DNA of 32,681 nt from a virus (taxonomy: Duplodnaviria; Caudoviricetes): the IMG/VR virus record IMGVR_UViG_3300048599_000907, positions 1 through 32,681 of that record; one strand, written 5' to 3'. A program made the position numbers and the translations under genes. The notes beneath the pieces are model-generated. The model ran no database searches. It saw only the letters and a list, made by a program, of their open reading frames with translations, and had not been told where the DNA came from. Below are positions 439-21,793 of the stretch, in pieces (position 1 is the stretch's first letter; each line of letters starts with the position of its first letter).

Positions 439-1928
439 TACCGGAGAAAATCACCTTTATTGATCGTTTTACGGTCGAATACCCATGTTTTGTCCTGCCA
501 TTTCAAGATTACCTTTTGGGCCATATTCTTGAACATGCCTCTGTAGATACCTTTCTCAATATCCTCTTTCGACATCTCCGGAAGCGCATGAATAATTATC
601 GTCCTGGCGTGTTGCGATCTTCCCGCTTCGGTTATCTCGTTCTTTATACTGGTCCATTCGGGTACTGTTTGCCTTTTCATTTCTCCTATCTCATTATTGA
701 TAAGCATATCGGGGCTTTTCATGTTGTTTTGAGGAAGTAGGTATATCTGATTACCGTCTTTCGCAAGGTCTGTTGCGTCGGCTATTTCCTGCTGAGAAAA
801 CATGCCATTTTTTGCTTTTTCGAGATACCCGCCATTCTTGAATTCCGAAATACGCGAATAGCCATTGAGCATTTCGGTCTGATAATTCGTCATGCCGAGA
901 TCGTGAGCCTGCTGCAGGATATCACCGATTATTCCGTACTTCTCGGCCCTTTGAATCATCCCGTCCGTGAGTTTCCACCAGCTCTCTTTTTCGATCGGAT
1001 TACCGCCAAATCCTTTCATCGGTTTAAATGTTTTTCGGAGGTCGGTCATGCTGGGATTTTCTACCTGAACGGTCCGACCTATCTCTGATTTTCTTACCGC
1101 GCGAATACTGTCACGGCAACCGTAATGATAGGGAGGAAATCCGTATATTTTCCAGAAAGGATGATTTGCCGGCATGGCAATTCCATATCCGGACGCAGAG
1201 AGAAGCGCTCGGCAAATTGCGGTAGTTCTATTGTCATCAATGATGAATAGCTGATATGCAGGCGGACTCGTTTTCTCGTACTGCATGAGCTTTCCGGAAA
1301 CATAGCAACTCTGAATATTCGTCCGATAAACAGTTTCCCAATAGCCCGGTTTCCACTCGTATGCTCCTTCTTCTTTCGCGATAGCCTTGATGTCAGCCCA
1401 TGATTTTGCGAAGCCTTCACCGTTTTCTACGGCCGAAAGAAGACGACCGCGAACTGCTTCTATATAGTCAACTTCGCTGAGTCTCGCAACTGTGAAGGCG
1501 CGAAATCGCAGTTTTGGTTCAAGAGCCGACCATTCCCTTTTCGTCAAAGGTACTTTTCCCTTGAGCATGGAAACGGCCTCTTCGAACGGTAAAAGCTCAT
1601 CGAGGGATGTAGAAATATTCGGGATCGATTCATCTGCGGCCATGATTGTCTTCGTCGCATGATCCATGCCAAGAAGTAATGCAGACGCGAAAAGCCGCTC
1701 TGCATTTACGACGAGATCTTCATTGATTTCTGGATACGGAAGCTGCGAAAGGACCTCTTTACTTGGCGGTGATCCATCAGGAGAAAGATCATTTATCCAG
1801 GTTGATACGGATTTTCCGAGCTGTTCTTCTACCCGTTTTTTTCCGGCGTCCGCCAGCGAATCAACTTCTCTTGACTTGGCCGTTTCGTCTTCTACAGGAT
1901 TCGAATTTCCGTTCGTTGCTTCAGGACT
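438..1928 (-). CDS. MuF (Mu gpF/SPP1 gp7-like) head protein with C-terminal PD-(D/E)xK CdiA-like nuclease; frame open from the A9 run, probably translated as a portal fusion
   Basis: MuF motifs RAFTVA, TVYRTNIQS, DDNRTT..C, HPFW...PPYHYGCR; C-terminal KSPDMLINNEIGEMK. The frame stays open 87 codons upstream of the ATG at 1667 with no ATG/GTG/TTG, and that ATG has no SD. Confidence 0.85.
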   Translation of the reverse strand, partial: SPEATNGNSNPVEDETAKSREVDSLADAGKKRVEEQLGKSVSTWINDLSPDGSPPSKEVLSQLPYPEINEDLVVNAERLFASALLLGMDHATKTIMAADESIPNISTSLDELLPFEEAVSMLKGKVPLTKREWSALEPKLRFRAFTVARLSEVDYIEAVRGRLLSAVENGEGFAKSWADIKAIAKEEGAYEWKPGYWETVYRTNIQSCYVSGKLMQYEKTSPPAYQLFIIDDNRTTAICRALLSASGYGIAMPANHPFWKIYGFPPYHYGCRDSIRAVRKSEIGRTVQVENPSMTDLRKTFKPMKGFGGNPIEKESWWKLTDGMIQRAEKYGIIGDILQQAHDLGMTNYQTEMLNGYSRISEFKNGGYLEKAKNGMFSQQEIADATDLAKDGNQIYLLPQNNMKSPDMLINNEIGEMKRQTVPEWTSIKNEITEAGRSQHARTIIIHALPEMSKEDIEKGIYRGMFKNMAQKVILKWQDKTWVFDRKTINKGDFLR

Positions 1929-6760: not shown

Positions 6761-7290
6761 AGAGCTTTCCTCCTGAAATCGGACTGATAGCAGTAAACGA
6801 TTGTGTAAAGGGTCCCCTGTGACGTAATAGCAGGGTTGTGCGGGTCCCACACTAATCGATCGTTATTGTCCACGATTCTGAAATGTATTTTTTGCGGGCC
6901 GTTTTGAGCGATTTTCTGAATGAATGCATCGGCACGCTGAAGCGCGCTTCCCTTCACCCAATCGTACCAGGTGATGATTCCGTTCTTCTTCGTACCGACT
7001 TCGATAAATCTCCCCGGCGCCCCAAGTATCTCGAGTGTTTTATTTGCCAGAACAGCACTTGAGTTCAGGACGTTTTCGCCGTCGATAAGCAAGCGTTTTT
7101 TTCCGGATACAAAGATCGAGTAATCCTTTCCCCAAAGCCAGATAGCATTTATCTGGCTTGTCGTCAGGGCATGTCCAGTCGCTATCTCGGCGATTCCCTG
7201 GGCGCTTCGTGCGAAACATCCCGATGCCTGAATAATGGGAAGACAGTCGGGATTATTCTGGGGCAACAGATCCATCTGTTTTGTATTCAT
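6757..7290 (-). CDS. DUF261-like papain-fold (C39/NlpC-like) peptidase, candidate endolysin
   Basis: IQASGCF (Cys), IHF (His), VWDP motif; first gene of the lysis block. Confidence 0.55.
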   Translation of the reverse strand: MNTKQMDLLPQNNPDCLPIIQASGCFARSAQGIAEIATGHALTTSQINAIWLWGKDYSIFVSGKKRLLIDGENVLNSSAVLANKTLEILGAPGRFIEVGTKKNGIITWYDWVKGSALQRADAFIQKIAQNGPQKIHFRIVDNNDRLVWDPHNPAITSQGTLYTIVYCYQSDFRRKAL

Positions 7291-7338
7291 GGATTAATGG
7301 TAGCGGACATAGACGAGATTCACTCTAAATCAGATAAA
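7291..7338 (-). promoter_or_regulatory. Late promoter (left arm), leaderless
   Basis: TTTATC-N3-TTTAGAGT-N19-TACCAT-N6-ATG; same layout at 19402-19452. Confidence 0.7.
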
Positions 7339-7339
7339 C

Positions 7340-7369
7340 AAAAAAGCGCCCCGGATATTTCCGGGGCGC
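7340..7369 (-). terminator. Intrinsic terminator ending the early/middle operon
   Basis: GCGCCCCGGA-aata-TCCGGGGCGC followed by TTTTTTGTTT on the - strand. Confidence 0.85.
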
Positions 7370-7375
7370 CTGCAT

Positions 7376-7567
7376 TCAAGGATTTGTCTGACTGACTAAT
7401 TCTCTTTTCCACAACATGTATATGTAATTCGCAGCAGTAATAGATTTTAGCATGTCACGCACAAGAGCTAGACAAAACTCGTCAGGAAATCCGGACTTGT
7501 GATAGTTATCAAAAAGGGAAAACATACTAGTCCTAAACTCATCCCATGAAACTCGTTTTTCGTCCAT
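7376..7567 (-). CDS. Hypothetical protein (63 aa)
   Basis: AAAGGT upstream, same strand as the operon, ends before the terminator; AT-rich. Confidence 0.5.
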   Translation of the reverse strand: MDEKRVSWDEFRTSMFSLFDNYHKSGFPDEFCLALVRDMLKSITAANYIYMLWKRELVSQTNP

Positions 7568-7596
7568 TACATACCTTTTGTATGAAAATTATTTTT

Positions 7597-7824
7597 TTAA
7601 TATTCCTTCCCGCAAAAGGGACAAAATACCGGCGTAATACAAACGGTCGTTTTATTTTCCTGAAAAGAACCGTTTCGTTTCTTCTTCCTATACGTCATTG
7701 CGAGGCCGGAAGGTTTCACGGAAAGCTTGTTGCCTCCAAGGGAAAAACCGACATTGACCGATGCTTCCGGGTCTTCGTATTCCTCACGGATAGACTTATT
7801 TACCTTTTCGATACAGTCACACAT
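7597..7824 (-). CDS. Small Cys-rich (Zn-binding) phage protein
   Basis: MCDC...FCPFCG; AAGGAG RBS. Confidence 0.7.
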   Translation of the reverse strand: MCDCIEKVNKSIREEYEDPEASVNVGFSLGGNKLSVKPSGLAMTYRKKKRNGSFQENKTTVCITPVFCPFCGKEY

Positions 7825-7976
7825 ATTTCACTCCTTATTTGTTGATCTAAGTTAGGCGTCTTCCGAAGAAGCGCTGCCAAATGAACTGTGCAGTAAAGAC
7901 CATAAGTATTTGCATTGCCGCATTCATCGATCTCTTTCTGAGAAAGTTCTTTCTTACAATCAATACAATATGCCAT
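7800..7976 (-). CDS. Small Zn-finger-like protein (58 aa, MAYCIDCKKELSQ...YCTVH)
   Basis: Read by hand (below the ORF-track cutoff); GGGAGG RBS; CxxC...CxxH. Confidence 0.6.
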   Translation of the reverse strand: MAYCIDCKKELSQKEIDECGNANTYGLYCTVHLAALLRKTPNLDQQIRSEICVTVSKR

Positions 7977-7992
7977 TCGTTCCTCCCGCGTG

Positions 7993-8172
7993 TTATGCGC
8001 CGCCTTTCTTTTTGTTCAACTCGGCGTAAATCTGTTTTTCCATTCCGTCAAGTTCGTGCCGCGCCCGAGCGATCATCCCGAGTGCAAGATTCGGTGATGC
8101 TGTGCATCGCACGGATAACTTGTCATCATAATCGACGCTCGAAACCTTAATCATTAAAACCTGTTCATCCAT
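7993..8172 (-). CDS. Hypothetical cassette protein (59 aa, MDEQVLMIKVSS...KKKGGA)
   Basis: Read by hand; AAAGGA RBS; the stop TAA lies inside GCATAAC (attC R''-type box). Confidence 0.65.
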   Translation of the reverse strand: MDEQVLMIKVSSVDYDDKLSVRCTASPNLALGMIARARHELDGMEKQIYAELNKKKGGA

Positions 8173-8249
8173 ATTTATATCCTTTCCGATAAATCCGGCT
8201 TGGCGTGTGTCGGCATAGTGCGCTTGCGCGGTATGCCGCTAAAACGTCC

Positions 8250-8311
8250 GCATAACATTTGCTTAACCTGCGACGACGTTAGTCGGAGTCAGGTTGAAGC
8301 TGTTGTTGGAT
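8250..8311 (-). mobile_element. attC: Integron attC recombination site (62 bp)
   Basis: Minus strand: R'' ATCCAAC, 5-nt spacer, L'' CTTCAACC, TGAC-TCCGACTAACGTCGTC-GCA, L' GGTTAAG, 5-nt spacer, R' GTTATGC. The extra C in L'' and the extra A give the two canonical extrahelical bases. Confidence 0.85.
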
Positions 8312-8482
8312 AGCCGCCCGGTGCTTTTTGTAAAACTTCTTTGCGGCGGTGTCTTCTGGGCAATTATAGTCCTCGACAAATTCGCAATCATCGCATGAGA
8401 TTTGAGTTACTTGCATTTCACGGCTTGAATTGATCGACAATTCACCGCCGCATTTCGGGCAAACCATATCGTCTATATCCAC
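8279..8482 (-). CDS. Zn-ribbon protein carried on an integron-type cassette (67 aa)
   Basis: GGAGG then GTG at 8482; CPKC...CDDC; stop lies inside attC. Confidence 0.7.
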   Translation of the reverse strand: MDIDDMVCPKCGGELSINSSREMQVTQISCDDCEFVEDYNCPEDTAAKKFYKKHRAAIQQQLQPDSD

Positions 8483-8571
8483 GGTAAATCCTCCGGGCGG
8501 CGAGGTGCGCCGTCCATATAATCGCTTGCCGATTATGTGGCAAGCATCCAACTCTGCTTATCTCGTTCCGC

Positions 8572-8907
8572 CTATCGCACTTCCTCAAGCACCCCGCCGA
8601 TCTCCTTCGCCTTTTTCTCCGCCGTCATTTGCGAGAAGATTACCGCCCTTGATTTGCGGACTATCAATGGCATTCGCGAGATTTCCTCGACTCCTCCGTA
8701 GTATCCATCGTCGGACATCTTGATGAGGTATCGTTTTTCGCGCTCGAGCCGGATGAATCCCGCGAGTCCCAGAAGAGGGGCGATGATGATAGCGAGCGTG
8801 AAAAACACCAGAAAAAAAGGCGTAATAACCAGAAGTACGAGAGAGACAAGGAAACCGTATACTACGCTTTGAAGCCACGGGCCCCGGCCGATCGTTATCT
8901 TGCTCAT
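8572..8907 (-). CDS. Hypothetical membrane protein
   Basis: Long hydrophobic N-terminal half; GGGAG RBS; ATGA-coupled. Confidence 0.6.
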   Translation of the reverse strand: MSKITIGRGPWLQSVVYGFLVSLVLLVITPFFLVFFTLAIIIAPLLGLAGFIRLEREKRYLIKMSDDGYYGGVEEISRMPLIVRKSRAVIFSQMTAEKKAKEIGGVLEEVR

Positions 8908-9029
8908 TTGCTTTTACTCTCCCTTTCTTGTTTTTTCCGTTGCGCTTCTTTGTAGAAAACGGAACACGGATTCTTGCAATTCTTTTGCGCGCACTCTTTA
9001 CAGTTTTTCGGTATTGTCCAGGTTCTCAC
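8904..9029 (-). CDS. Small Cys-rich protein (41 aa, MRTWTIPKNCKEC...)
   Basis: Read by hand; AGGAG then GTG; ATGA overlap with the next gene. Confidence 0.55.
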   Translation of the reverse strand: MRTWTIPKNCKECAQKNCKNPCSVFYKEAQRKKQERESKSK

Positions 9030-9039
9030 AGGCTTGCTC

Positions 9040-9411
9040 CTAAAATGCGAACTCAAGCTGGCTTAAAGGTTTGAGTTCTTGCTGCAATACTTTCGGACGT
9101 CGGCGCGGGTAATGCACCATTCCTCGTCGTCGTCCTTGTAGGCGTCCAGTTCTTTTCGGTAGATCATTCGGTAAATCGTAAGCGGCTGCAGCGAGAAGAA
9201 ATTCGCAACTTCCTCCACGGATAGAATCGCGTCCAGGGATTCTATTTTTTCTGTCAGGGTGTTGCTTATCATATTCGATGACTCCCTCGGGCAATACTCG
9301 CCAGGCTCCTGAGACCTTTACCGCCTCGACGCTTCCCATTACGATCAGGTAGTACACCTGCCACGTTTCCATACTTAGGTATTCCGCCGAAATCCTCACC
9401 GTCCAGAACAT
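9040..9411 (-). CDS. Excisionase/MerR-type HTH protein with C-terminal extension
   Basis: WTV...AEYL.M...QVYYLI..G.VEAVKV.GAWRV pattern; AGGAGGGG RBS. Confidence 0.65.
   Translation of the reverse strand: MFWTVRISAEYLSMETWQVYYLIVMGSVEAVKVSGAWRVLPEGVIEYDKQHPDRKNRIPGRDSIRGGSCEFLLAAAAYDLPNDLPKRTGRLQGRRRGMVHYPRRRPKVLQQELKPLSQLEFAF
9063..9272 (-). CDS. Excisionase/MerR-type HTH (HTH_17) protein
   Basis: LSVEEVANFF......IYRMI..KEL.A......W.I pattern; GAGGGAG RBS; nested in 9040-9411. Confidence 0.8.
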   Translation of the reverse strand: MISNTLTEKIESLDAILSVEEVANFFSLQPLTIYRMIYRKELDAYKDDDEEWCITRADVRKYCSKNSNL

Positions 9412-9428
9412 AGGTCCCCTCCTGACTG

Positions 9429-9457
9429 TTGACAGCGCCTTCGCATCGCGTTAAGGT
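9429..9457 (+). promoter_or_regulatory. Antisense sigma70 promoter
   Basis: TTGACA (9429-9434), 17-nt spacer, TAAGGT (9452-9457). Confidence 0.65.
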
Positions 9458-9461
9458 GTTC

Positions 9462-9533
9462 ATGAGTTTTATGCGCGGTAGTACCGCAGTCAGGAAGGGC
9501 GCCATCTGTTCGAGAGATGGCGCTCTTTTTTTT
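9462..9533 (+). ncRNA. Candidate ~70-nt antisense sRNA
   Basis: Lies between the promoter above and a + strand terminator (stem 9497-9525, T8 9526-9533); no ORF. Confidence 0.55.
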
Positions 9534-9750
9534 ATGCTATATTCAAATCGAGCTGTCCATTTTCCGACTCGACGATCCGAATGTCATCAAGAAGTTTGAA
9601 CAGCACGATTCCGATAGAGTCGAGCGCGAGACGCTGCTTATCGCACCTTCGCTCAAGAATGAAGAGTTGTTGTTTTGTAAGTTCTATTTCAGAAAGGATC
9701 TTTTCCAAGGTTAACCCCTGTGATCCGGGTTGAGTCCGGCTTTCCAGCAA
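9532..9750 (-). CDS. Small coiled-coil protein
   Basis: Follows gemA; heptad-like pattern; true start uncertain. Confidence 0.5.
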   Translation of the reverse strand: MLESRTQPGSQGLTLEKILSEIELTKQQLFILERRCDKQRLALDSIGIVLFKLLDDIRIVESENGQLDLNIA

Positions 9751-10160
9751 ATATCCCGTAACGCGAGAATTACGCTTGAGGCGCTTGATCGTGGCAGAAA
9801 TGATATATCGTCTACCTTTCCTATCCGCTTGATTATCGCCTTGAGGCTAATCTCGTCTTTCACGCGGCTTGCCAGTTGCCAGAGGCCCCGGATGTAGTAT
9901 TCCTGACGCTTCGTGATATACCCCGGAGCGCCGCCAACCGTGGTCTTTCGCTTGTTACCTGAAGCGGCGCTTGCTCGCGGATCGTATCGGAAGCCGAGTC
10001 GCGAGAACGCGAGCATGACTTCCTTGAACTGTTCTACGTCGCGAATTTCTTTCGAGCTTTCGCACCCGACGCCGGAGAGAATCCCCCGGTATGCCGCCTC
10101 GTCGATGCCCGTTTTTTTCTTCGCCACATGGATTATTCTGATCCAATCTTCTTTTCCCAT
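9711..10160 (-). CDS. gemA: GemA (Mu gp16, DUF1018) regulatory protein
   Basis: IHVAKK..GID...YR..L....SSKE motif; T.RQ..YI..LW; AGGAG RBS. Confidence 0.85.
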   Translation of the reverse strand: MGKEDWIRIIHVAKKKTGIDEAAYRGILSGVGCESSKEIRDVEQFKEVMLAFSRLGFRYDPRASAASGNKRKTTVGGAPGYITKRQEYYIRGLWQLASRVKDEISLKAIIKRIGKVDDISFLPRSSASSVILALRDICWKAGLNPDHRG

Positions 10161-10220
10161 AGTGCCGCTCCTGGTAATGTCGTCCGGGGCAGGACGTCCA
10201 GATCTGCCCCGAAGTGGAGA

Positions 10221-10832
10221 TCAAAGCCTCGCGACATCAAGATTAATCAGATCATATTCTCCACGATTATTCCGATGATAAACGCGAATATATTCCTTGC
10301 TCTCGGAGACTTGAATTGAATCCCCGATTGCTTCCATTGCTTTTTTCCATCGTAAATCATCAATGGAAAGGCGACGTAATCCAAGAATACGATTTGTGTT
10401 GATCTTTCCTGCTTTACCGACATAGAAGGCATCATTGACTAATGCCTGAATCTCACTTCGTGAGTCTTTTGACCAATCGGTTATGCATGCGTCGATAAGC
10501 TCTTTTGCAACCTGAAGGCGTTCATCGAATGAGATTAATTCGTTAACCGCTACGAGAACCTTGAACTCTCCGTCATATGACAGAAATTGCATGTTGCCTT
10601 TTTCGCCGCCAAACTTTACACCGTATTGTTCGGCACTCAGTTCTACAAACGCTCGGATGTCTCCGAACATTTCTTCTTTGAGTTCTCGGAGCTTCTCTGA
10701 CATGGAAAGAGTCTTTCTGACGACATCTTTAACCAGATCATCGCGGGCTTTATCAACATCCTTGACCATCGATACGGGATCAAGTCCGCCCTTACTGTTT
10801 TTCATGTACCCGTCGGGAATTTCGTTGTTCAT
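10221..10832 (-). CDS. DUF3164 family protein
   Basis: GYM.N.KG.L.P, GGEKGN....SYDG, FDERLQ.AKELID, W..AM.AI motifs; typical of transposable phages. Confidence 0.85.
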   Translation of the reverse strand: MNNEIPDGYMKNSKGGLDPVSMVKDVDKARDDLVKDVVRKTLSMSEKLRELKEEMFGDIRAFVELSAEQYGVKFGGEKGNMQFLSYDGEFKVLVAVNELISFDERLQVAKELIDACITDWSKDSRSEIQALVNDAFYVGKAGKINTNRILGLRRLSIDDLRWKKAMEAIGDSIQVSESKEYIRVYHRNNRGEYDLINLDVARL

Positions 10833-10845
10833 ACTTTCTCCTTTT

Positions 10846-11055
10846 TTATGCAGCTTCCGGGCCGGTTCCGGACGGAGCGATGCTCGTTTCGTTTTTCAGG
10901 ACTTGCTTTGCTTCAAAGACCAGCGTTCCTATTTTCAGGCAGCAGTCCCGAGGGCTCTTGTTCAGGATCGCGGCGGATGCCGTGTCCTGTATCTCGTCCA
11001 GAAGCTTGTTCAGCATTTCGTAGCCTGAATCGTTAATCATCATCGTGTTAGGCAT
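10846..11055 (-). CDS. Hypothetical protein
   Basis: GGGGAGG upstream of ATG (MPNTMM...); in-operon. Confidence 0.55.
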   Translation of the reverse strand: MPNTMMINDSGYEMLNKLLDEIQDTASAAILNKSPRDCCLKIGTLVFEAKQVLKNETSIAPSGTGPEAA

Positions 11056-11080
11056 TAGACACCTCCCCAAGTGCCGTTAT

Positions 11081-11788
11081 TCAGTCATCGCCTTTCGTCC
11101 CGGCAATGATTCCCTTCTCCTCGTACTGCTCGATGCGTTCGTAGTATTTCTCGATCGCGATCTGCACGTTTTTCAGGAGTTCCTTCTGCTCGATATCGGG
11201 CAGGCCTTGCGGTGGCGTCGTATACAGTTGAACGACCGGAATATGACCGCCGCTCTTGCTGATAAGCCAGAGCCGGTTCGTTTCATGGAACGACTCGACA
11301 CGGTAGTTTTTCAACCGAGCCTTCGAGAGGCAGGGTTCTGCGAACAGGGCTTCAATGTCGTAGTCGAACTCCGTCTGTTCATCGCCCGCGAACTTGACGC
11401 GGCCCGGCTTTTCTTCGTCGCCCTTTTCTGCTTTCACGCCGGCAAGCCCGGCGAGCGCATACGCTTCGGTCTTCGCCTTGTCTTCGAGCAATGACGGGTC
11501 TTCCTTGAAGAACTCGAATGTCCTGATGTAGTTGTTCGCCGTGTTGTAGCTGAAATCGAAGTTTTCCTTGACGAACTGCATCCAGGGGAGGCTCGCGTCG
11601 GAATTCCGCCTGATCGTGTAGAGCCGTTGCCCGATGTCGAACGCGATCATCGCGGACTTCTTCATCGAGGCAATGAACTTCTTGTGAAGGGCGTTTACCT
11701 CCCGTACCGCCCCGGCGGAGATGTCCGCCGGGGCGGTCGCCGCGAGTCCGGTTTCCGGCTCGTTGGGCGCAATCTTGTTGTTTTTCAC
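11081..11788 (-). CDS. DUF3102-like protein
   Basis: IGQRL..I......W..FV.ENF.FS..TANNY motif; GGAGG RBS with GTG start. Confidence 0.7.
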   Translation of the reverse strand: MKNNKIAPNEPETGLAATAPADISAGAVREVNALHKKFIASMKKSAMIAFDIGQRLYTIRRNSDASLPWMQFVKENFDFSYNTANNYIRTFEFFKEDPSLLEDKAKTEAYALAGLAGVKAEKGDEEKPGRVKFAGDEQTEFDYDIEALFAEPCLSKARLKNYRVESFHETNRLWLISKSGGHIPVVQLYTTPPQGLPDIEQKELLKNVQIAIEKYYERIEQYEEKGIIAGTKGDD

Positions 11789-11792
11789 GGCC

Positions 11793-12704
11793 TTACCTCC
11801 AGTTCCTGCGGATTACCATCTGGGCGGCCATCTCGACGACCTCAAGGTCGCATTCCGCGATCTTGTTGACCGCCATGGTGTTTTGTGCCCGCTCGATGAT
11901 CTTGGTGAACTGCCTCACGTCCGTCCGGCTTATCGCGTAGATGGCGTCGATCACCTCCTTGTCGACCGCGGGCCATACCTTCTGGGCGATCATCGTCGCG
12001 TCCCGTTTCGTGAGGCCGCAAAGAGGGAGGTATACGCCGATGCGCGATTCGAGTTGCCGGTGGTCGTTCTTGAGGTTCTGAATGAGCCCGGTCAGTCGCG
12101 GAAGGCCGATAAGGACCAGCCCGGAGCCGCCGAGGTCATATACCAGGCGCCGGGAGAACTCGAGGGCGTCAGCCTTGAGATTATCCGCCTCGTCGAGGAT
12201 TACTACCATGTCGCGTTCCGCGAGCGCGGCGGCTACGTTCTGGATCAGCGTTTGATTCGGTACGCGGTAGATGTCGACGCCGAGGTATTTCGCGATCTCC
12301 TGAACGAGCGCTTTCTTGTTCATTCCCGAAACGACATTGACGAGTATCGTCGTGCGCGGATTGCGGTCGGCGTACCACTTCGCGGCGGTAGACTTCCCCG
12401 CGCCGGCATCATCGACGATGAGCGCGATGTCCTTTTCCGAATGGGCAAGCGCGATCGCGTTGGTGATCTTGGTCAGCGCGTCCGTCTCGACGATCTCGAC
12501 TTTCTTGCGGGCGTGTGCCTGTTCGAGCCGGGCGATCCACTTGATGATCGCCTCCTCGAGTTTGTCGACATCGCCCTTGTACTTCCCGCCCCGGTAATCC
12601 GATATAACCGGGCTTGAGTACCCGATATCCTTTGCCGCGCGATTCTGGCTGATCTCGTACTTTTCGAGCGTCGCCTCAAGTCTCGTTACCACTGTCTGAT
12701 TCAT
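11793..12704 (-). CDS. MuB-like transposition ATPase (N-terminal HTH + AAA+)
   Basis: SQNRAAKDIGYSSPVIS HTH; Walker A DAGAGKS; Walker B VVILDEAD; LVLIG and L.SRIG motifs; follows the transposase. Confidence 0.92.
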   Translation of the reverse strand: MNQTVVTRLEATLEKYEISQNRAAKDIGYSSPVISDYRGGKYKGDVDKLEEAIIKWIARLEQAHARKKVEIVETDALTKITNAIALAHSEKDIALIVDDAGAGKSTAAKWYADRNPRTTILVNVVSGMNKKALVQEIAKYLGVDIYRVPNQTLIQNVAAALAERDMVVILDEADNLKADALEFSRRLVYDLGGSGLVLIGLPRLTGLIQNLKNDHRQLESRIGVYLPLCGLTKRDATMIAQKVWPAVDKEVIDAIYAISRTDVRQFTKIIERAQNTMAVNKIAECDLEVVEMAAQMVIRRNWR

Positions 12705-12713
12705 AAATCCCCC

Positions 12714-14648
12714 TTATAAATCCGGTAGATAATCTTCCGCCCGCGCTTCGAGCGGGCTAATCATTACGCGTTTCTGCTTCCGGGGCGGGTCAGGGGATGG
12801 TATCGATACGTCCTCCGCGCCTGCCGCCTTCGGAAGCGCCAGTTGTTCGTCGATATCGGGCAGGTCGTTCTGTTCGTAGATGCGACCCGCGACATCGATC
12901 ATCGTGCGGAACTCGGGAGCCGCCTTGACCTCGCCCGACCCCATTTGCGCGAGCATCATGAGGTTCTTCTTTTTCGCCTCGCGGACTCGTCCGATGGATT
13001 CGCCAAGATTCGCGGTTTCCTTGGTGTAGTCGGCGATCGCCGTGCAGATAACCGCCCCGTGCGCGTCCGTGACGAGGACTTCCTCGTCGTTCGTCAACGA
13101 TTGCCGCACGATCACGTCCCGGCCGGAATAGGTGAAGAGCGCCTGGGCGAAATAGGACCGGTCGCCGATCTTCACGCAGTTGCCGCGCACCCGCCTGACC
13201 GTCCCGCGCGACAGGGCAAGCGTTAGCACTTCCTTGTCCGCCGCGGGCACGTCGTCGGGGTAGTTCTCGGCGAATACCTGCGAGGGCGTTTTCCCGTTCA
13301 TACCCTTGCCGTCCGACTCAAAACGGTCATTGACGAGCTGGATCGTCGACCCGAGGGCTTTCACGAACCAGTCCCAATCGTTGAAGTCTTCCCGTTGTGC
13401 GACTCCGTTGATCGACCGGTAAAAGGTTTGAACCTCGTCGGGGCGCGTCCGGGTATCGCTGCCGGTATACGCTCCCGTGTCCTTCGAGAAGTATTCCGCG
13501 AGCGTTCGGAAGAACCGTTCCTGCCGGCCTTTCGATTTACCGTTGTACGTTTCGGTGAAGGTGATCCGGGTACCGACCATCGAGAAGACGCCCTCAAGAT
13601 GTACCATTACCTCTTCCGAAAGTCCTTCCGGGGTGTAGACGGTGATCTTCTCGAATGACCCGTTGAGGATCTTCGAACGGTAATCTTGCCCGTTGTCGAA
13701 TACGCATTCCTTCGGGATGCCGTACCGGAGCGCCATCATGTAGAAAGCGACGATGATCGACATGCTCGACGGGTTTACGCTCGGGCACCATCCGATGATC
13801 TTTCCGGACCGGTAGTCCTGAAACGTCGTGATCCATGGGCGGATCAGTTTGCCCTTGTACCGGATGACGCAGTCGAGGCAGTGATGGTCGGATACGACTT
13901 TGTCCATGCTTCGATAGCGCAAGACGTTCTGGTCAACGTGCGGGTGATGGTAGTTCCCGGCTCGCGTCGCGCCGAGTCGCTTGAAGTCGATTAGCGGTTT
14001 CGGTAGGGAATTGAGGTATCGGTATGCCGTCTGGTAGGAACAGGAGGAGTCGGGAATATTGAACCGCATGAGCCGCCACGCGTGCCGGGCCGAAGGTTGC
14101 TCGGGCCGGAGCCAGAAATACTCGAGGTATGACCGTTCCGTGTCCGTAAGGCTTTCGCCCGCGCCGCCCCGCGTTGCACCGTAGAGCGGGACGAGGCCAG
14201 CCGCTCCGCGCATTTCGCTTCGTGCTTTGAGCCACCGGTACAGGGTCGGAACCGATACCGTGCCGAGTTTCTCCCGGATAGGCCGCGCTACGGCACCGGA
14301 ATTGTACGCCCCGACGAACGTCTCGAGATTCACCCCGGTCTGTTTCGCCCGGTCGTATTCCGCGAGCAGCGCCGCGCGCCATGTCGCGATCTCGCGCGAG
14401 CGGTCGCTCGCCGCCTTGAATCCGTGTCCCGCGATGCTTTCCTCGGCATCTTCCCGCTCGACCATCGGCACTGTCTTTTTCGTTGACGATAACGCCATGC
14501 GAATATCCAGCGGGAGCCGCGTTTCCACGAACTGCAAACCGCCCGACTTTTCTATATATGCCCAGCCTTCCCGACGCGCTCGCTCAATAACGGTTTTCCG
14601 CGCAAGGCCGATGGCGTCGCTTATCCGTTTTGTGCTTATCGTCGTCAT
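12714..14648 (-). CDS. MuA-like DDE transposase
   Basis: N-terminal Mu DNA-binding region (RARREGW), SVPTLYRW HTH, catalytic SDHH / FDNGQDY / KGRQERFF, Mu C-terminal domain. Confidence 0.95.
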   Translation of the reverse strand: MTTISTKRISDAIGLARKTVIERARREGWAYIEKSGGLQFVETRLPLDIRMALSSTKKTVPMVEREDAEESIAGHGFKAASDRSREIATWRAALLAEYDRAKQTGVNLETFVGAYNSGAVARPIREKLGTVSVPTLYRWLKARSEMRGAAGLVPLYGATRGGAGESLTDTERSYLEYFWLRPEQPSARHAWRLMRFNIPDSSCSYQTAYRYLNSLPKPLIDFKRLGATRAGNYHHPHVDQNVLRYRSMDKVVSDHHCLDCVIRYKGKLIRPWITTFQDYRSGKIIGWCPSVNPSSMSIIVAFYMMALRYGIPKECVFDNGQDYRSKILNGSFEKITVYTPEGLSEEVMVHLEGVFSMVGTRITFTETYNGKSKGRQERFFRTLAEYFSKDTGAYTGSDTRTRPDEVQTFYRSINGVAQREDFNDWDWFVKALGSTIQLVNDRFESDGKGMNGKTPSQVFAENYPDDVPAADKEVLTLALSRGTVRRVRGNCVKIGDRSYFAQALFTYSGRDVIVRQSLTNDEEVLVTDAHGAVICTAIADYTKETANLGESIGRVREAKKKNLMMLAQMGSGEVKAAPEFRTMIDVAGRIYEQNDLPDIDEQLALPKAAGAEDVSIPSPDPPRKQKRVMISPLEARAEDYLPDL

Positions 14649-14920
14649 GCCGCTTGTCCTCTCTCCCTCATGGTTTCGAGGTCGCCGCGCGTCCTGATCG
14701 GGAAGAGGTCTTCCCGGCGAAGGCCGAAGAATGCGGCGATGCGGGTTTCGGTAGCGGGGGATCGGCGCGTACCCCAGATGATTTCCGACAGGTGACTTTT
14801 CTGAATCCCTACAGCATCTGCAAGTTCATCTTGCGTCATCTCATTTGCATAGAGCCGCTGCATGACAAGCATCTTTCGTTCGATGTCTTTCGGGTAAGGT
14901 CTTCCGGGTGCCTTTTTCAT
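14645..14920 (-). CDS. Ner/Cro-like XRE HTH regulator
   Basis: MTQDELADAVGIQKSHLSEII.G HTH; ATGA-coupled to the transposase; AGGAGG RBS. Confidence 0.8.
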   Translation of the reverse strand: MKKAPGRPYPKDIERKMLVMQRLYANEMTQDELADAVGIQKSHLSEIIWGTRRSPATETRIAAFFGLRREDLFPIRTRGDLETMRERGQAA

Positions 14921-15817: not shown

Positions 15818-15869
15818 CCCTCGTGGTATACTGACCGTGTCACAAACCAGAACGCCACGAAGGAGGCAA
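15818..15869 (+). repeat. Repeat A copy 2
   Basis: TCGTGGTATACTG and a 23-bp stretch identical to copy 1. Confidence 0.85.
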
Positions 15870-16743: not shown

Positions 16744-17427
16744 ATGTCAACAATAGGAATTCGTTTCAAAGAAATACGTGATTCAACCGGTTTGAACCAA
16801 TCACAATTTGCGAAACTTATTAATGTTAACCCCAGTTTAGTAAGTGATATCGAAAGAGGAGATAAAGAACCGTCTAAAAACGTGATTATTACTATGATAA
16901 ATGAATTAAAAATAAACTCTAACTGGCTGTTAACAGGTGATGGTGAGCGGGTCATTAATGGCCCTCCTGCTGTTTGTTCAACGAAAATACCTCTGCTCAA
17001 GCAAACGGCCTCATGCGGGCCGGGGCAGGATTGGGGCGATGCTGACATGATCGAGGACTACATAGAGCCGCTTGCCCTCGTTCCGTCTCTCCAGGGCGCA
17101 AAGGTATACGCCTTTCGGGTACGCGGTAGCTCGATGATCGGTGCTGGTATCTTCGACGGCGACATCGTTCTGTTTGACGGTCGGGAAGGCGTTGATCCGA
17201 CGGACGACCTCTACGTGTTCGCATTGGACGGGGCCGTCTATTGTAAATGGCTCAAGTTCGATCCGATCAGTCACCGCATCCAGATTTATTCCGTGCATTC
17301 GCCGGAGCTGGAGAAGGCCGAGCTGCTCAAGGTCATCGATACCGACAACCCCGACCAGATCACCGCCTTTCACGTTTTCGGCCGGATTCTCGCCTGGGTA
17401 CGCGAAAACCGGATGGTCTACCGATAA
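16744..17427 (+). CDS. cI: CI/LexA-like repressor (XRE HTH + S24 peptidase)
   Basis: LNQSQFAKLINVNPSLVSDIERG HTH; NWLLTG.G; ASCG cleavage-site region; VRGSSM (Ser) and YCKWL (Lys). Confidence 0.9.
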   Translation: MSTIGIRFKEIRDSTGLNQSQFAKLINVNPSLVSDIERGDKEPSKNVIITMINELKINSNWLLTGDGERVINGPPAVCSTKIPLLKQTASCGPGQDWGDADMIEDYIEPLALVPSLQGAKVYAFRVRGSSMIGAGIFDGDIVLFDGREGVDPTDDLYVFALDGAVYCKWLKFDPISHRIQIYSVHSPELEKAELLKVIDTDNPDQITAFHVFGRILAWVRENRMVYR

Positions 17428-17489
17428 AAAAATCTTGTTGAGCAAGAAATTCACGTTTATAGTCAGTAAATAAGGGAGAACGATCAAAT

Positions 17490-17957
17490 ATGCAAAGAAC
17501 GACAAAGATTATTATTCTTGTTGCAATACCAGTGTTTATCGCAATAATGCTTGTTTCGGGATGGCTTGGAGAGCGAAGCGTTACCTCACTCAATACTTAT
17601 GGGCCGTATTCAAAAGTTGATTCATGGTATGAACAGGATGGAAAACATCAAAACTTGGCAGAAATCTACGTTTGTAATGGAACTATGGATATTGAGTCAT
17701 TACAAAAACTGTGTTCAAAAAAGAAAAAAGTGTATGAAAATGGAACGTATTCATCATACACACTTGTAGTATTCGAAAATAAGGAATCCGTAATGCGCTC
17801 AAGTTATCCGATAACAGCGTTGTATGGTGATGAGCTCGAAAAACAAAGGCATATACTTGCGTTTTACTCATACGTTCCCGGTAACGAATATTCAGTACTT
17901 AGCTATTACGAAAAAAATGCTGCCGACAGTATGGAAAATACAATAAGAGTCCAGTAA
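17490..17957 (+). CDS. Membrane-anchored moron protein
   Basis: N-terminal TM; AT-rich; own promoter-like TTGTTG-17-TATAGT (17435-17463), AAGGGAG RBS and terminator. Confidence 0.75.
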   Translation: MQRTTKIIILVAIPVFIAIMLVSGWLGERSVTSLNTYGPYSKVDSWYEQDGKHQNLAEIYVCNGTMDIESLQKLCSKKKKVYENGTYSSYTLVVFENKESVMRSSYPITALYGDELEKQRHILAFYSYVPGNEYSVLSYYEKNAADSMENTIRVQ

Positions 17958-17967
17958 TGATCTTTTT

Positions 17968-17995
17968 GCCCCGGTTCCTTCCGGGGCTTTTTTTT
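17968..17995 (+). terminator. Intrinsic terminator
   Basis: GCCCCGG-ttcctt-CCGGGGC followed by T8. Confidence 0.85.
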
Positions 17996-18191
17996 ATGCT
18001 CTTTTCAGAAAGCAGAATAAAAGCGCCTTCGTCCACCCCGGAAAGAGGTCAAAATACCCCTGCCAGCCGCGAAACCCCGTTAGAAAACCATTAGAGGCAA
18101 AAAATGAGGTAGTTTGACGTAAAATCCCCCGCCCCCCTGTTTTTCGTGATAAACTGGTCACATCAAATAATACCAATTCAGGGGATGGAAT

Positions 18192-19346
18192 ATGGCAAAA
18201 AAAGCTGCAAAAAAACCTAAAGGGAAAAGCCCTGCCGCAAAAACAGGGAAGGAAAAAAGCGCTGTTGTAAAGCGACCTGTGGAATCCAAGAGAATAAAAC
18301 TACAGGCTTTCAAGGATTCTTCTCCGGAACAACAACCTGAAATCAAAGAAATCCGCCTAAAGACTGAAAAAGACTTTATCGCGTTCTATAAGAACATCGA
18401 CAATATTGATTACCAGAAAGCGAACATAGTCGACCTTACTTCGATTTCCGTTTCACTAAAACTTGAAGGGGCCGACTTCGATTCATCCCTGACAGGAAAA
18501 GCAATCGAGGTACTGAACGAATATCAGACGAAAATATATCGGGCCTATAAGCTTCAGAAGTATGGACAAAGTTCAAAGAAACAGTTAACTACTGAAGAAC
18601 AGCATTTATTCGAGATAAAGGTCACGATTCAACCAGGGTGCACGGAAGCCTTGGTCGAATTTGTTAAGGCGGCTGCGGCCGAGGGAATGAAGGGTATGGA
18701 CGGTTCTCAGATCCAGAATACGATACTTGGCGTTGCGGCGATCGCCGCATCGGCCTTCGTGATAAAAGGCGTGGCATCACCGGTAATCCGGGAAATATTC
18801 CAGACGAAGCGTAAGGAGATCGAAAGTAAAGTTGCCATTGAGGAAGCCCGGCTAAAAATCGAAAGCGAAAAAGTCTCTGCTGAACAGAACCTTCAGTTTT
18901 TACGAAGCGTCGAATCCATATCGAATAATGCCATTGATGCGGTTCGAAGTGTTTCTGAAAAGATGGTTGATGTTACAGCGGACAAAATAAAGATCGATAA
19001 TAAGGTCGTAAAAAAAGCTGACATTGCGCTGATACCCGCAAGTCTCGCTCCGGAAGTTATAAAGGAAAAGGTCGATCGTCAATACACAGTCGAGGGTATG
19101 TTTAGGGTTCTGGATTTGAATTATGAAGGCGACGTAACTTTGATGAAGGCGCAACATATAGAAAGCGGAACTGTGTATAACGATATATCATTGCAAAATG
19201 ACTGGCTGACGAAAAAAAACATGCAAGTTATTGAAAATGCCCAAAGTCGCGAGCCCGTTTTCTTCCGCATAATGGTTCATGAATTAAACAAAAAAGTATC
19301 CAGTGCGATCGATGTCGACAGTATCGATCCTGAAAGAAAAGCATAA
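18192..19346 (+). CDS. Moron protein of unknown function (384 aa; Lys/Ala-rich N-terminus, central hydrophobic helix)
   Basis: Long ORF, AT-rich, flanked by terminators. Confidence 0.8.
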   Translation: MAKKAAKKPKGKSPAAKTGKEKSAVVKRPVESKRIKLQAFKDSSPEQQPEIKEIRLKTEKDFIAFYKNIDNIDYQKANIVDLTSISVSLKLEGADFDSSLTGKAIEVLNEYQTKIYRAYKLQKYGQSSKKQLTTEEQHLFEIKVTIQPGCTEALVEFVKAAAAEGMKGMDGSQIQNTILGVAAIAASAFVIKGVASPVIREIFQTKRKEIESKVAIEEARLKIESEKVSAEQNLQFLRSVESISNNAIDAVRSVSEKMVDVTADKIKIDNKVVKKADIALIPASLAPEVIKEKVDRQYTVEGMFRVLDLNYEGDVTLMKAQHIESGTVYNDISLQNDWLTKKNMQVIENAQSREPVFFRIMVHELNKKVSSAIDVDSIDPERKA

Positions 19347-19352
19347 CGCTTC

Positions 19353-19388
19353 AAAGCCCCGGAAAACCTCCGGGGCTTTTTCATTTTT
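19353..19388 (+). terminator. Intrinsic terminator
   Basis: AAAGCCCCGGA-aaacc-TCCGGGGCTTT followed by a T-rich tail. Confidence 0.85.
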
Positions 19389-19401
19389 CACGTCCGCTTG
19401 A

Positions 19402-19449
19402 TTTATCCCGTTTAGAGTAGCCCCGTTCGAATCGGCGTAAGCTGACATC
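19402..19449 (+). promoter_or_regulatory. Late promoter (right arm), leaderless
   Basis: TTTATC-N3-TTTAGAGT-N19-TAAGCT-N6-ATG. Confidence 0.7.
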
Positions 19450-20430
19450 ATGAAAACACGAACGAGGGAAATTGCGAAAGTCGGAATCTTCGGATCTATC
19501 GACAACCCCACCATCGTCACGGAAAAAGACCTCAAGGAGATCGCCGAAACCTTCCTGGAAATCAAGAAGGCTCCGGTGCAGTTCGGCCATTGGGGCGACG
19601 CGGCGAATCCGCGTCTCGCGAACGTCGTGGCGGTCAAGTATGATCCCGTCGCAAAATCGCTCACCGCCGACATCGATGAGGACGACACGCTCAGCGCTGC
19701 CGTCGACCAGGGATATTATCCCGACGTGTCGATTGGAGCGAAGCAGCGCGCGTCCGACGGCAAGATGTATCTCCATCACCTCGCGTATCTCGGCCAGGAA
19801 GCGCCCGCGGTCAAAGACCTTATCGACTCCATCAAGGAGCCGCTCGGGATCGCCGCGTCTGACGTTGCCGACGTCAAATGCCTTCCGACCCCGACCTCGC
19901 GCGCCCTCGTTCTTTCCGAGCCCTTTAATGACAAAAGCATAAAGGGAAATGAAGGAACGCCGCCTGCGGCGAGCTCAGGAATGAGCTCCCTTCCCCCCGC
20001 AGGCGGCAAAACTTCATCTCCAAATCCCAAGGAGGAACCCAAAGTGACGGAACAAGAAGCTGCCGATCTCGAGGCAGAAAACAAGAAGCTCAAGTCCGAC
20101 ATCGAGAAAAAGGACGTGCTTCTTTCCGATTCGGAAAAGCGCCAGAAAGACACCGAGCGGGAAAAGCTTCGTACTTCAATGGACGGCCGCGTTCCGAAGG
20201 CATTGCAGGATCGCGTAATCGCGCTTGCTGATTCCTTCGACAACGCCAAGACGATCGAGCTTTCCGACGGCGACGCGAAACGTACCGTTCGGCCGGCGGA
20301 AGCCCTCGCCGAAATATTCGCCGCGCTCCCCAAGCTCGTCGAGCCCGGCGAGCTCAACCTGAGCGACGGTGACCCCGCCGCGTCCCCCGCAAAGCCCGGC
20401 GCCGCGCGCGCCATGATGGGCCACGTATAA
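19450..20430 (+). CDS. Prohead protease/scaffold (Mu gpI-like)
   Basis: APV..GH, G.Y..VS, YLHHLAYLG..APAVK motifs; coiled-coil C-terminal half. Confidence 0.8.
   Translation: MKTRTREIAKVGIFGSIDNPTIVTEKDLKEIAETFLEIKKAPVQFGHWGDAANPRLANVVAVKYDPVAKSLTADIDEDDTLSAAVDQGYYPDVSIGAKQRASDGKMYLHHLAYLGQEAPAVKDLIDSIKEPLGIAASDVADVKCLPTPTSRALVLSEPFNDKSIKGNEGTPPAASSGMSSLPPAGGKTSSPNPKEEPKVTEQEAADLEAENKKLKSDIEKKDVLLSDSEKRQKDTEREKLRTSMDGRVPKALQDRVIALADSFDNAKTIELSDGDAKRTVRPAEALAEIFAALPKLVEPGELNLSDGDPAASPAKPGAARAMMGHV
20044..20430 (+). CDS. Scaffold protein from an internal in-frame start (Mu gpZ-like)
   Basis: AAGGAGG then in-frame GTG at 20044, at the start of the coiled-coil domain. Confidence 0.65.
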   Translation: MTEQEAADLEAENKKLKSDIEKKDVLLSDSEKRQKDTEREKLRTSMDGRVPKALQDRVIALADSFDNAKTIELSDGDAKRTVRPAEALAEIFAALPKLVEPGELNLSDGDPAASPAKPGAARAMMGHV

Positions 20431-20440
20431 GGAGAAGAAC

Positions 20441-20785
20441 ATGGATGCAGTCATTGGTTCTATTGCTGTTACCGAGGATTCAATCCTCCGGGGCGGCCAT
20501 CATATCGTAACCGCGATCCCGCTCAAAGATGGCCTTACCGGCCTCAAACCGGGAATGCCTCTCAAGGTCGATACCGGCGAGTATGTCCCGTGCGCGGGAA
20601 CCGGCACCGAAGATCCCGTCACGGTGCTTCTCGAAGTCCCCGCGATGCCCACCTCGGCGGCCGTCGAACCGGTAGTCGTACACGGCGAGGTTCGGCGCGA
20701 AAAGCTCGTCTATTCGGACGGAACCACCGCGATTACCGATGCCTATGTGGAGTTGCTCCGCAAGAACGGCATTTACGCCCTGTAA
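20441..20785 (+). CDS. Head decoration protein (lambda gpD-like)
   Basis: 114 aa between scaffold and capsid; HG.V...KL and LR..GIY motifs; AAGGAG RBS. Confidence 0.65.
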   Translation: MDAVIGSIAVTEDSILRGGHHIVTAIPLKDGLTGLKPGMPLKVDTGEYVPCAGTGTEDPVTVLLEVPAMPTSAAVEPVVVHGEVRREKLVYSDGTTAITDAYVELLRKNGIYAL

Positions 20786-20803
20786 AACAGGAGGAGAAAA
20801 ACA

Positions 20804-21793
20804 ATGCAGATTTCTATTTCCGGGCTTCGCCCGTTCTTTACCCAGGACGCGATCGCTGAAGCGGTCACCGCCATGGCGAAACCGCAGACGCCGCTTACCG
20901 ATCTTCTTTTTCCGGTCGCCAAGCGTCAGCAGAAGACGAGTCCCTTTATCCCCGAGGGGGATGTCGAGGACGTAGTCGGATCGGCACCGGTCGTCCGGCG
21001 CGGTTCCGAATCTTATTCCGTCGACGGTAAATCGACGGCAATCAAGCTCATCGAAGTACAGCCGATTTCTCTCAACCGGTTCGCCAAGGCCAAGGAACTG
21101 AATGACCTCATGGCGCTCGGAACCACGAACGGAATCCAGGCGTACGTGAACGAGACGCTTGAGTATCTCCGGGACAAGACGAGCGCCGTGACCGAGATCC
21201 TTGTCCGTCAGTCGCTTTCCGGGAAGATCGAGTACCCGATGGCGACGGCCGGATCAATGTCCGAGAAGTACACGGTCAATTTCGGCACCATCAAAACTCT
21301 GGATGCGGTGACCATCGCTGCCGATGATCTCGCGAAGCTTCAGATCAAGCTGGAAAAGCTTTATCAGGCCCAGCTTGCTACCGGGGCGTCGGGTGATATC
21401 CGCTTTCTCTGCGCGGACGACGTTTACACGAAAATCGTGGCGATCGTGGTCGCGGCGGGGACTATTGCCCCGGTCATCTGGACCGACACCGGCCTTACGC
21501 TCTTCGGAAAGTACAAGATCATGACCATGGGCATGACGTACATTCTGCCCGGTACCACGGCGGCCGTTCCGGTTATCCCGGCGGGATACATCCAGACGGT
21601 CGACATCACGAACGCGGGCAAGCTCTTCTATGCCGCGCTCGACGATCTCGACGCGAACCTCGCGCCGCTTCCGTTCTACGCGAAGCCGATCAAGTCCGAC
21701 GACCCGTCCGGATACAAGTTCGTCTCCGAGTCGAAACCTCTCCCGGCCCCCGCGATCAGCAAAATGCGCCGTCAGCGGTTCTTGCCGGAGTAA
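20804..21793 (+). CDS. Major capsid protein (gpE-like HK97 fold)
   Basis: APVVRRGS, DPSG......SKPLP motifs; 329 aa; AGGAGG RBS. Confidence 0.85.
   Translation: MQISISGLRPFFTQDAIAEAVTAMAKPQTPLTDLLFPVAKRQQKTSPFIPEGDVEDVVGSAPVVRRGSESYSVDGKSTAIKLIEVQPISLNRFAKAKELNDLMALGTTNGIQAYVNETLEYLRDKTSAVTEILVRQSLSGKIEYPMATAGSMSEKYTVNFGTIKTLDAVTIAADDLAKLQIKLEKLYQAQLATGASGDIRFLCADDVYTKIVAIVVAAGTIAPVIWTDTGLTLFGKYKIMTMGMTYILPGTTAAVPVIPAGYIQTVDITNAGKLFYAALDDLDANLAPLPFYAKPIKSDDPSGYKFVSESKPLPAPAISKMRRQRFLPE

Follow-up and report, generated by a model that had tools for sequence, protein, structure and literature searches.

An attC site and integron-type gene cassettes in a variable slot of a Mu-like provirus

The stretch of DNA analysed here (32,681 nucleotides, hereafter the window) spans the entire IMG/VR provirus record IMGVR_UViG_3300048599_000907, which is 51% complete. 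The distal end of its early/middle operon carries a real integron attC site at positions 8250-8311. On balance, we lean towards reading the region around this site as a partly decayed integron platform, into which the integrase (IntI) of the host, acting in trans, would have placed cassettes drawn from a pool circulating among phages. Because the integron parts occur without an integrase and match a pool found in unrelated phages, the enzyme was likely borrowed from a host integron.

A variable slot at the end of a Mu-like operon

PHROGs and Pfam annotation bore out the Mu-like prophage operon proposed in the initial annotation. The window encodes the gene set of a Mu-like transposable phage: a DDE transposase A (PF02914, PF09299), a B-type ATPase, DUF3164, GemA, and a Mu-type terminase and portal. 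The slot forms the distal end of the early/middle operon, between the gene for a 111-aa protein and a terminator-like hairpin, with phage genes flanking it on both sides.

8572-14920, minus strand: Mu-like early/middle operon 5' of the slot, with ner-like, transposase A, MuB-like ATPase, DUF3164, GemA and HTH_17 genes and the 111-aa gene (PHROGs, Pfam)
7344-7371, minus strand: intrinsic-terminator-like hairpin that closes the variable slot; homology with the relative L075 restarts here

As first noticed, there is no sign of an integrase: neither intI (TIGR02249) nor a tyrosine recombinase (PF00589) was matched in the 51%-complete record. Positions 7000-10400 hold one sigma-70-like site against 3.7 expected, and no promoter stands above chance. 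Transcription of the promoterless cassettes would come from the phage operon and stop at the terminator at 7371; their genes may provide accessory functions.

The early and packaging genes point one way and the protease, capsid and tail genes (16744-21793) the other, the repressor lying between the two groups. This divergent layout is also found in the related prophages L075, L077-L084, L086, L089 and L092, and is unlike that of phage Mu. Two lower-GC genes at 17490-19346, in the interval from the repressor to the head genes, encode proteins of 155 aa and 384 aa (phrog_6191); the 384-aa gene was not found in the related loci compared, and both are likely moron genes. At 30968-31634, in a low-GC stretch, five repeats of ~138-147 nt lie in the part of the gene that encodes the C-terminal part of a 1194-aa tail protein, probably a repeat-built receptor-binding module.

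A complete attC and an intact cassette

8250-8311, minus strand: complete attC, 62 bp (boxes, fold and attC model)
8256-8551, minus strand: cassette 1, intact, 296 bp; its core GTTGGAT (8552-8546) matches its R''
8483-8552, minus strand: leader of cassette 1, with hairpins and a ribosome-binding site (similar to the L016 leader)
8279-8482, minus strand: gene for a 67-aa CxxC/CxxC zinc-ribbon protein, its last codons running into the attC (four homologues)

Read on the minus strand, the attC consists of R'' (ATCCAAC, 8311-8305), a 5-nt spacer, L'' (CTTCAACC), L' (GGTTAAG), a second 5-nt spacer and R' (GTTATGC, 8256-8250), so that the core consensus (RYYYAAC, GTTRRRY) and the L boxes lie in an imperfect hairpin. 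When the R and L core is constrained, one G and one T are extrahelical and the central spacer is unpaired; this core accounts for 28% of the ensemble at its present position, rising to 73% when the junction of an in-silico circle is folded. The bottom-strand fold has a z of -3.3, equalled by 2 of 200 shuffles. An alignment of host sites shows covariation, both sides having changed in 6 of 16 pairs (0 of 500 shuffles). Boxes, spacers and extrahelical bases are all as originally described for a complete 62-bp attC.

Our attC calls rest on two models of our own, R1 and R2. To avoid circularity, R2 was built from host sites, namely 36 attC sites adjoining a true intI (a TIGR02249 match over the cut-off) in the Treponemataceae genome G044, with the window's site left out. 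An attC-model search had been suggested as a check, and this host-derived model matches the claimed site: R2 matches a single place in the window, 8250-8311 (on both strands), with 48.7 bits and E 4e-10 on the minus strand. No second complete attC was found by R2 or among the repeat families listed, and the 'array' first described reduces to one complete attC, with one intact cassette plus remnants. In the available text of Qi et al. (PMC9892861), two sites of the same family, attC1 and attC2 of phage TJE1, recombine with attI1 under IntI1, and IntI recombination of the window's attC is predicted likewise. That the structure could be a chance hairpin or a terminator, with no function in recombination, seems to us so improbable that it can be set aside. 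There is one complete site only, and Rfam lends it no support, its five weak matches in the window all lying elsewhere; however, the reading is refuted by the R2 E-value, by two matched cassette ends, by boundary matching in 46 of 59 adjacent units of such arrays (see below) and by identity to parts of TJE1.

The core GTTGGAT at 8552-8546 is the exact complement of R'' ATCCAAC, which confirms in sequence the 296-bp cassette (8551-8256) proposed earlier. Its zinc-ribbon gene also stands, with a corrected start: GTG at 8482 (67 aa) is the most likely start codon, since two of the four homologues are 64-65 aa long and the longer ones begin in the leader, in another frame. Pfam Zn-ribbon and Lar matches to the protein were all under their cut-offs, the structure model was poor (pLDDT 51), and the atlas matches were to generic small zinc-ribbon-like or unnamed clusters only. 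The gene was not found in other contexts in viral contigs, and a scan of 28 of 64 metagenome parts gave eight weak, uninformative matches. The leader is 93% identical over 69 nt to that of cassette 1 in contig L016, and the 4-nt gap between the two is filled in contigs from runs X1 and X4. The two cassettes have the leader family and the last 12 codons in common, around an unrelated middle gene.

A truncated cassette and possible eroded units

7992-8255, minus strand: cassette 2, truncated; core GTTATGC, 59-nt leader, gene for a 59-aa protein (8172-7993) and R'' GCATAAC (7998-7992)
7800-7976, minus strand: small Cys-rich ORF, possible eroded unit 3; R''-like GCCTAAC at 7857-7851, from sequence only
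7597-7824, minus strand: gene for a 75-aa protein (phrog_7033), possible eroded unit 4

The second unit of the initial annotation holds up at its end, where CGCATAAC at 7999-7992 is the complement of this next unit's first 8 nt, but its attC stops directly after R'' and the remaining arms are gone. The sole match for its 59-aa gene was spurious. The first 59 nt of cassette 2 are identical at 58 of 59 positions to cassette 3 of TJE1 and at 59 of 59 to a cassette in viral contig L147. All three units have the same R'' end, after which the TJE1 and L147 cassettes keep a full attC, and their three proteins show no BLASTP similarity to one another.

Unit 3 has no matching start core and no attC-model match, and the sole homologue found is identical to it; for unit 4, no cassette boundary was confirmed. 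The slot would then comprise an intact and a truncated cassette and possibly two eroded units. Later deletions may have taken the downstream attC arms, fixing those genes in place.

An attI-like head before the first cassette

8553-8576, minus strand: degenerate attI-like head, overlapping the stop codon of the 111-aa gene

Overlooked in the initial annotation, this head consists of a pair of inverted 7-nt boxes with 6 nt between them; a further 4 nt lead to G|TT. The comparison set came from 36 viral arrays, 19 of which include the start of a first cassette (core plus NGAY required); one duplicate was dropped. The motif is present in 14 of these 18 heads, the other four being out of register, and the viral heads average 10.8 bits in leave-one-out scoring, against at most -1.3 for random sets. 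In a record that was not used for training, two heads score 18 bits. When applied to host integrons, the matrix puts the start of the first cassette first in four of the five placeable loci and third in the fifth.

With a matrix of all 18 heads, the window's head (8576-8553) scores 3.2-3.4 bits and ranks fourth among 980 GTT sites; with the 14 in-register heads, it ranks first of 980. Most viral heads score 10-25 bits; at 3-5 bits, this one appears weakly recognisable but worn. Reading the 8552 junction as an eroded right arm of an attC fared worse, at rank 35 of 981. With a single attC in the window, the 296-bp unit could leave only through an attI x attC reaction, which is less efficient than one between two attC sites.

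Directly after the intI stop codon in G044:C1 (L098 ~15840-15860), ~360 nt before the working attI, there is also a nearly perfect head-type palindrome.

Variation of the slot among related prophages

Relatives of the window differ in what the slot contains. Prophage L075, whose B protein is 94% identical, aligns on either side of the slot and has other genes inside it. Its slot carries two pool leaders (92-93% identity), one of them behind a head-like site of 8.0 bits, and its attC sites are mutated. Contigs from runs X1 and X3, which belong to one wastewater study, keep window positions 8721-8545, with a diverged 111-aa gene, and then continue into a leader of another known family; in a comparison by eye, 27 of 30 letters agree with the L009 leader. 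No contig was seen to run across cassette 1 or to bypass it, which carries no weight either way. The suggestion that gene content should change exactly at the G|TT points thus agrees with X1 and X3, which differ from the window at the same junction, but not with L075, where the borders of the slot are the 111-aa gene end and the terminator. The change of first cassette in X1 and X3 would fit IntI insertion; homologous exchange could also account for it, because the first cassettes there and in the window have ~15 nt in common after the G. No leader follows the 111-aa gene of L076 within the 130 nt available, and no attC was detected in the other 22 Mu-like viral loci, many of which stop short of the slot, or in three prophage stretches from genomes.

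These relatives bear on a second explanation, in which the cassettes were put together by IntI in a different phage, and head and cassettes then passed whole into the Mu-like phage by homologous or illegitimate recombination; IntI would never have acted in this lineage, and the sites would simply be decaying. We regard this fossil block capture as a real possibility, short of likely. It accommodates the weak head, the truncated cassette 2, the eroded sites of L075 and slot borders away from G|TT, and a leader in L146 that is chimeric between two families shows that leaders can recombine homologously; the available text of Qi et al. (PMC9892861) proposes such routes for TJE1. It is harder to reconcile with the overlap of the head and the stop codon of the 111-aa gene resident there, with the intact attC of cassette 1 and with the lineage of the diverged 111-aa gene, which has another cassette behind the same junction. 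According to the reading that we favour, the cassettes would have been inserted at the 8553-8576 head rather than captured as a block, into a platform that is now partly decayed, as its single attC, its weak head and the eroded sites of L075 indicate.

The attC that follows one matched cassette (L075:12613-12675) has turned into a nearly perfect palindrome: its left arm is the complement of a right arm, and it no longer has the extrahelical base. This suggests that inverted-repeat correction may be one way in which attC sites die.

Cassettes shared among tailed phages

An exact pattern taken from the window's site occurs in 45 stretches of 40 viral contigs and in 17 stretches of the genome collection, counts that are biased by the derivation of the pattern and do not amount to viral enrichment. 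By model R1, 29 of the 40 viral contigs have at least two attC sites within 3 kb, some of these phages being near-identical. No intI was found in any of the 40 attC-bearing viral records, most of which are fragments, and no PF00589 match in the 36 that were searched. The carriers are tailed phages of different kinds, as judged from six partly annotated records (75 proteins), and in these six the arrays mostly adjoin replication, recombination or methylase genes. From their motifs, with no family search, the cassette ORFs of the pool presumably resemble methyltransferases, a kinase, RtcB and small Cys-rich proteins.

Boundary matching of the kind produced by IntI recombination holds in these phage arrays. 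There are 62 adjacent pairs, four of them from small genome contigs, and 59 are unique with intact GTT/AAC; R'' is exactly complementary to the preceding core in 46 of the 59, whereas shuffles gave 5.0 on average and 13 at most. The inner part of the attC tracks the upstream gene, at a mean identity of 0.87 over 15 pairs, but does not track the downstream leader, at 0.66 over 33 pairs against a background of 0.70; this places the crossovers at the R' end. The closest tie to the window is TJE1, the sole phage among 50,697 records that matches window 8150-8570, with 92% identity between window 8274-8198 and TJE1 1051-1127.

Among 47 matched units, 18 pairs of leaders are at least 85% identical, and 13 of these pairs have unrelated bodies, all with the same core. 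We refer to a 55-75-nt leader plus its matching R'' and attC as a shell. Three records carry the shell of cassette 2 around three unrelated genes, in addition to those 13 pairs. Near-identical ends around unrelated genes may offer a lead on how cassettes arise. Since integrated attC sites tolerate R mismatches, typically two, selection need not hold the ends matched, and the match probably reflects the making of the cassette. We suggest, as a tentative and rather doubtful generalization, that phages hold a pool of their own, in which attI-headed platforms that lack an integrase are run by host IntI and reusable shells enclose unrelated genes.

Individual arrays show further rearrangements. In L147 (~2410-2352, minus strand), an inverted attC lies directly 5' of a cassette start, as if by top-strand insertion or inversion of the site. 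L146, the record with the chimeric leader, has one attC cut after L'' and a duplicated 60-nt module (2135-2195 and 739-800, minus strand) that ends in an attI-like head, each copy heading its own cassettes; the module is a candidate promoter-plus-attI unit.

Host integrons and the source of the cassettes

Relatives of the window's B protein (62-69%) occur in 5 of 401 genomes from the phylum of a Treponemataceae genome, which suggests, rather than shows, a spirochaete host. Such a host would carry an integron and supply IntI in trans. Of five genomes with a related Mu-like prophage, one has intI and ~30 attC sites of the same family. The same boxes recur at 73 sites of the intI-adjacent G044 array, and among G044 cassettes shorter than 1.5 kb, R'' is exactly complementary to the preceding core in 62 of 63. 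By the G044 boxes and the R2 match, the window's attC belongs to the family of Treponemataceae chromosomal integrons, in keeping with the treponemal style first attributed to it. Short attC length as a phage-specific trait was ruled out by sites of 63-68 nt in the G095 chromosomal array.

It could be supposed that the cassettes came from a host chromosomal integron, by secondary (attG) insertion or by capture of a piece of an array, an origin that we hold to be improbable. Boxes and spacers are identical in host arrays, one genome combines a related prophage with 63-68-nt attC sites of the same family, and SALIN formation at genomic GWT sites has been shown, in the available text of bioRxiv 2022.09.11.507474. 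However, the pool proteins and leaders had no match in 80 kb of the G044 array; in the G095 and G303 stretches, the proteins again had none and the leaders gave matches of 18-25 nt only. A search of the phylum's 401 genomes, run with no positive control, did not recover the leader of cassette 2, whereas this leader is 98-100% identical across three phage-derived records, the window included. A look for these cassettes in host arrays, as the initial annotation advised, thus turned up none in the arrays sampled. The matches lie in other phages, so the source looks like a phage pool. The capture through host IntI that was first envisaged is partly supported, by the IntI-type boundaries, the attI-like head and the alternative first cassette, but the source appears to be phage rather than host.

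Relation to known systems and implications

Integrase-less cassettes in phages have been published as CALINs, with 17 in 10,705 phage genomes in the available text of Qi et al. 2023 (PMC9892861). The TJE1 CALIN is the nearest parallel: R1 matches all three of its sites, which are complete, whereas the window has one complete attC and is a temperate transposable prophage. The available part of PMC9892861 describes the motif before the TJE1 array as a terminator containing inverted GTTRRRY. In our analysis, it fits the attI-like head once a missing base is allowed for, scoring 17.2 bits with the gap and -16.8 bits ungapped. TJE1 (NC_019930.1) is recorded as an actinobacterial phage, yet it has pool cassettes with attC sites of the Treponemataceae type, and actinobacteria are reported to lack complete integrons in the available text of PMC4889954; the host range or assignment of TJE1 deserves a check. 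The cryptic Shewanella prophage M16-3 resembles the window in that an attI heads its cassette cluster, but it also encodes a complete integron with intI, according to the available text of PMC9892861.

The sedentary chromosomal integrons of Treponema and Treponemataceae (Wu et al. 2013, PMC3607928, in its available part; G044, G095) resemble the window in their L and R boxes and spacers, which are the same, in their hairpin leaders after the core and in a similar attI geometry. The window differs in having no intI and a phage-type cargo that was not found in the host arrays sampled. The variable stem of its attC is short (62 bp in all), whereas G044 sites are 109-122 nt and G095 sites 63-68 nt long.

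A CALIN contains two or more attC and no intI in the available text of PMC4889954; the second attC of the window is an R'' only. A complete integron has intI by the array, and none lies there in this 51%-complete record; of its other parts, attI has a low-scoring counterpart in the head, and for a Pc promoter there is the one sigma-70-like site, below the number expected. By the available definitions in PMC4889954 and bioRxiv 10.1101/2022.09.11.507474, the locus is a SALIN and not a CALIN, with a single complete attC and no integrase nearby, although a SALIN has no other att site close by and here an attI-like head and an R'' remnant are present. The attG sites described there, as far as that text is available, have a GWT consensus only, whereas the window has an upstream flank that looks like a structured attI, and there is a second cassette after the first.

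In the literature covered, which takes in little of what lies behind subscription, we found no description of a shared attI-like head on phage arrays, of the reuse of shells or of cassettes in Mu-like prophages. With 40 viral contigs reached by one exact pattern, 29 of them with at least two sites, phage arrays appear commoner and more ordered than reported. The shared attI-like head turns what would be passive remnants into candidate working platforms that can be assayed directly. How cassettes originate is still called unknown in the available text of PMC4889954, and identical shells around unrelated genes provide named sequences, one of them in a cultured phage, for testing how a cassette is created. 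If phages do hold a pool of their own, new cassettes would be made in them, and a transposable prophage would carry these between hosts; such a temperate carrier would open a further route for cassettes into new chromosomes.
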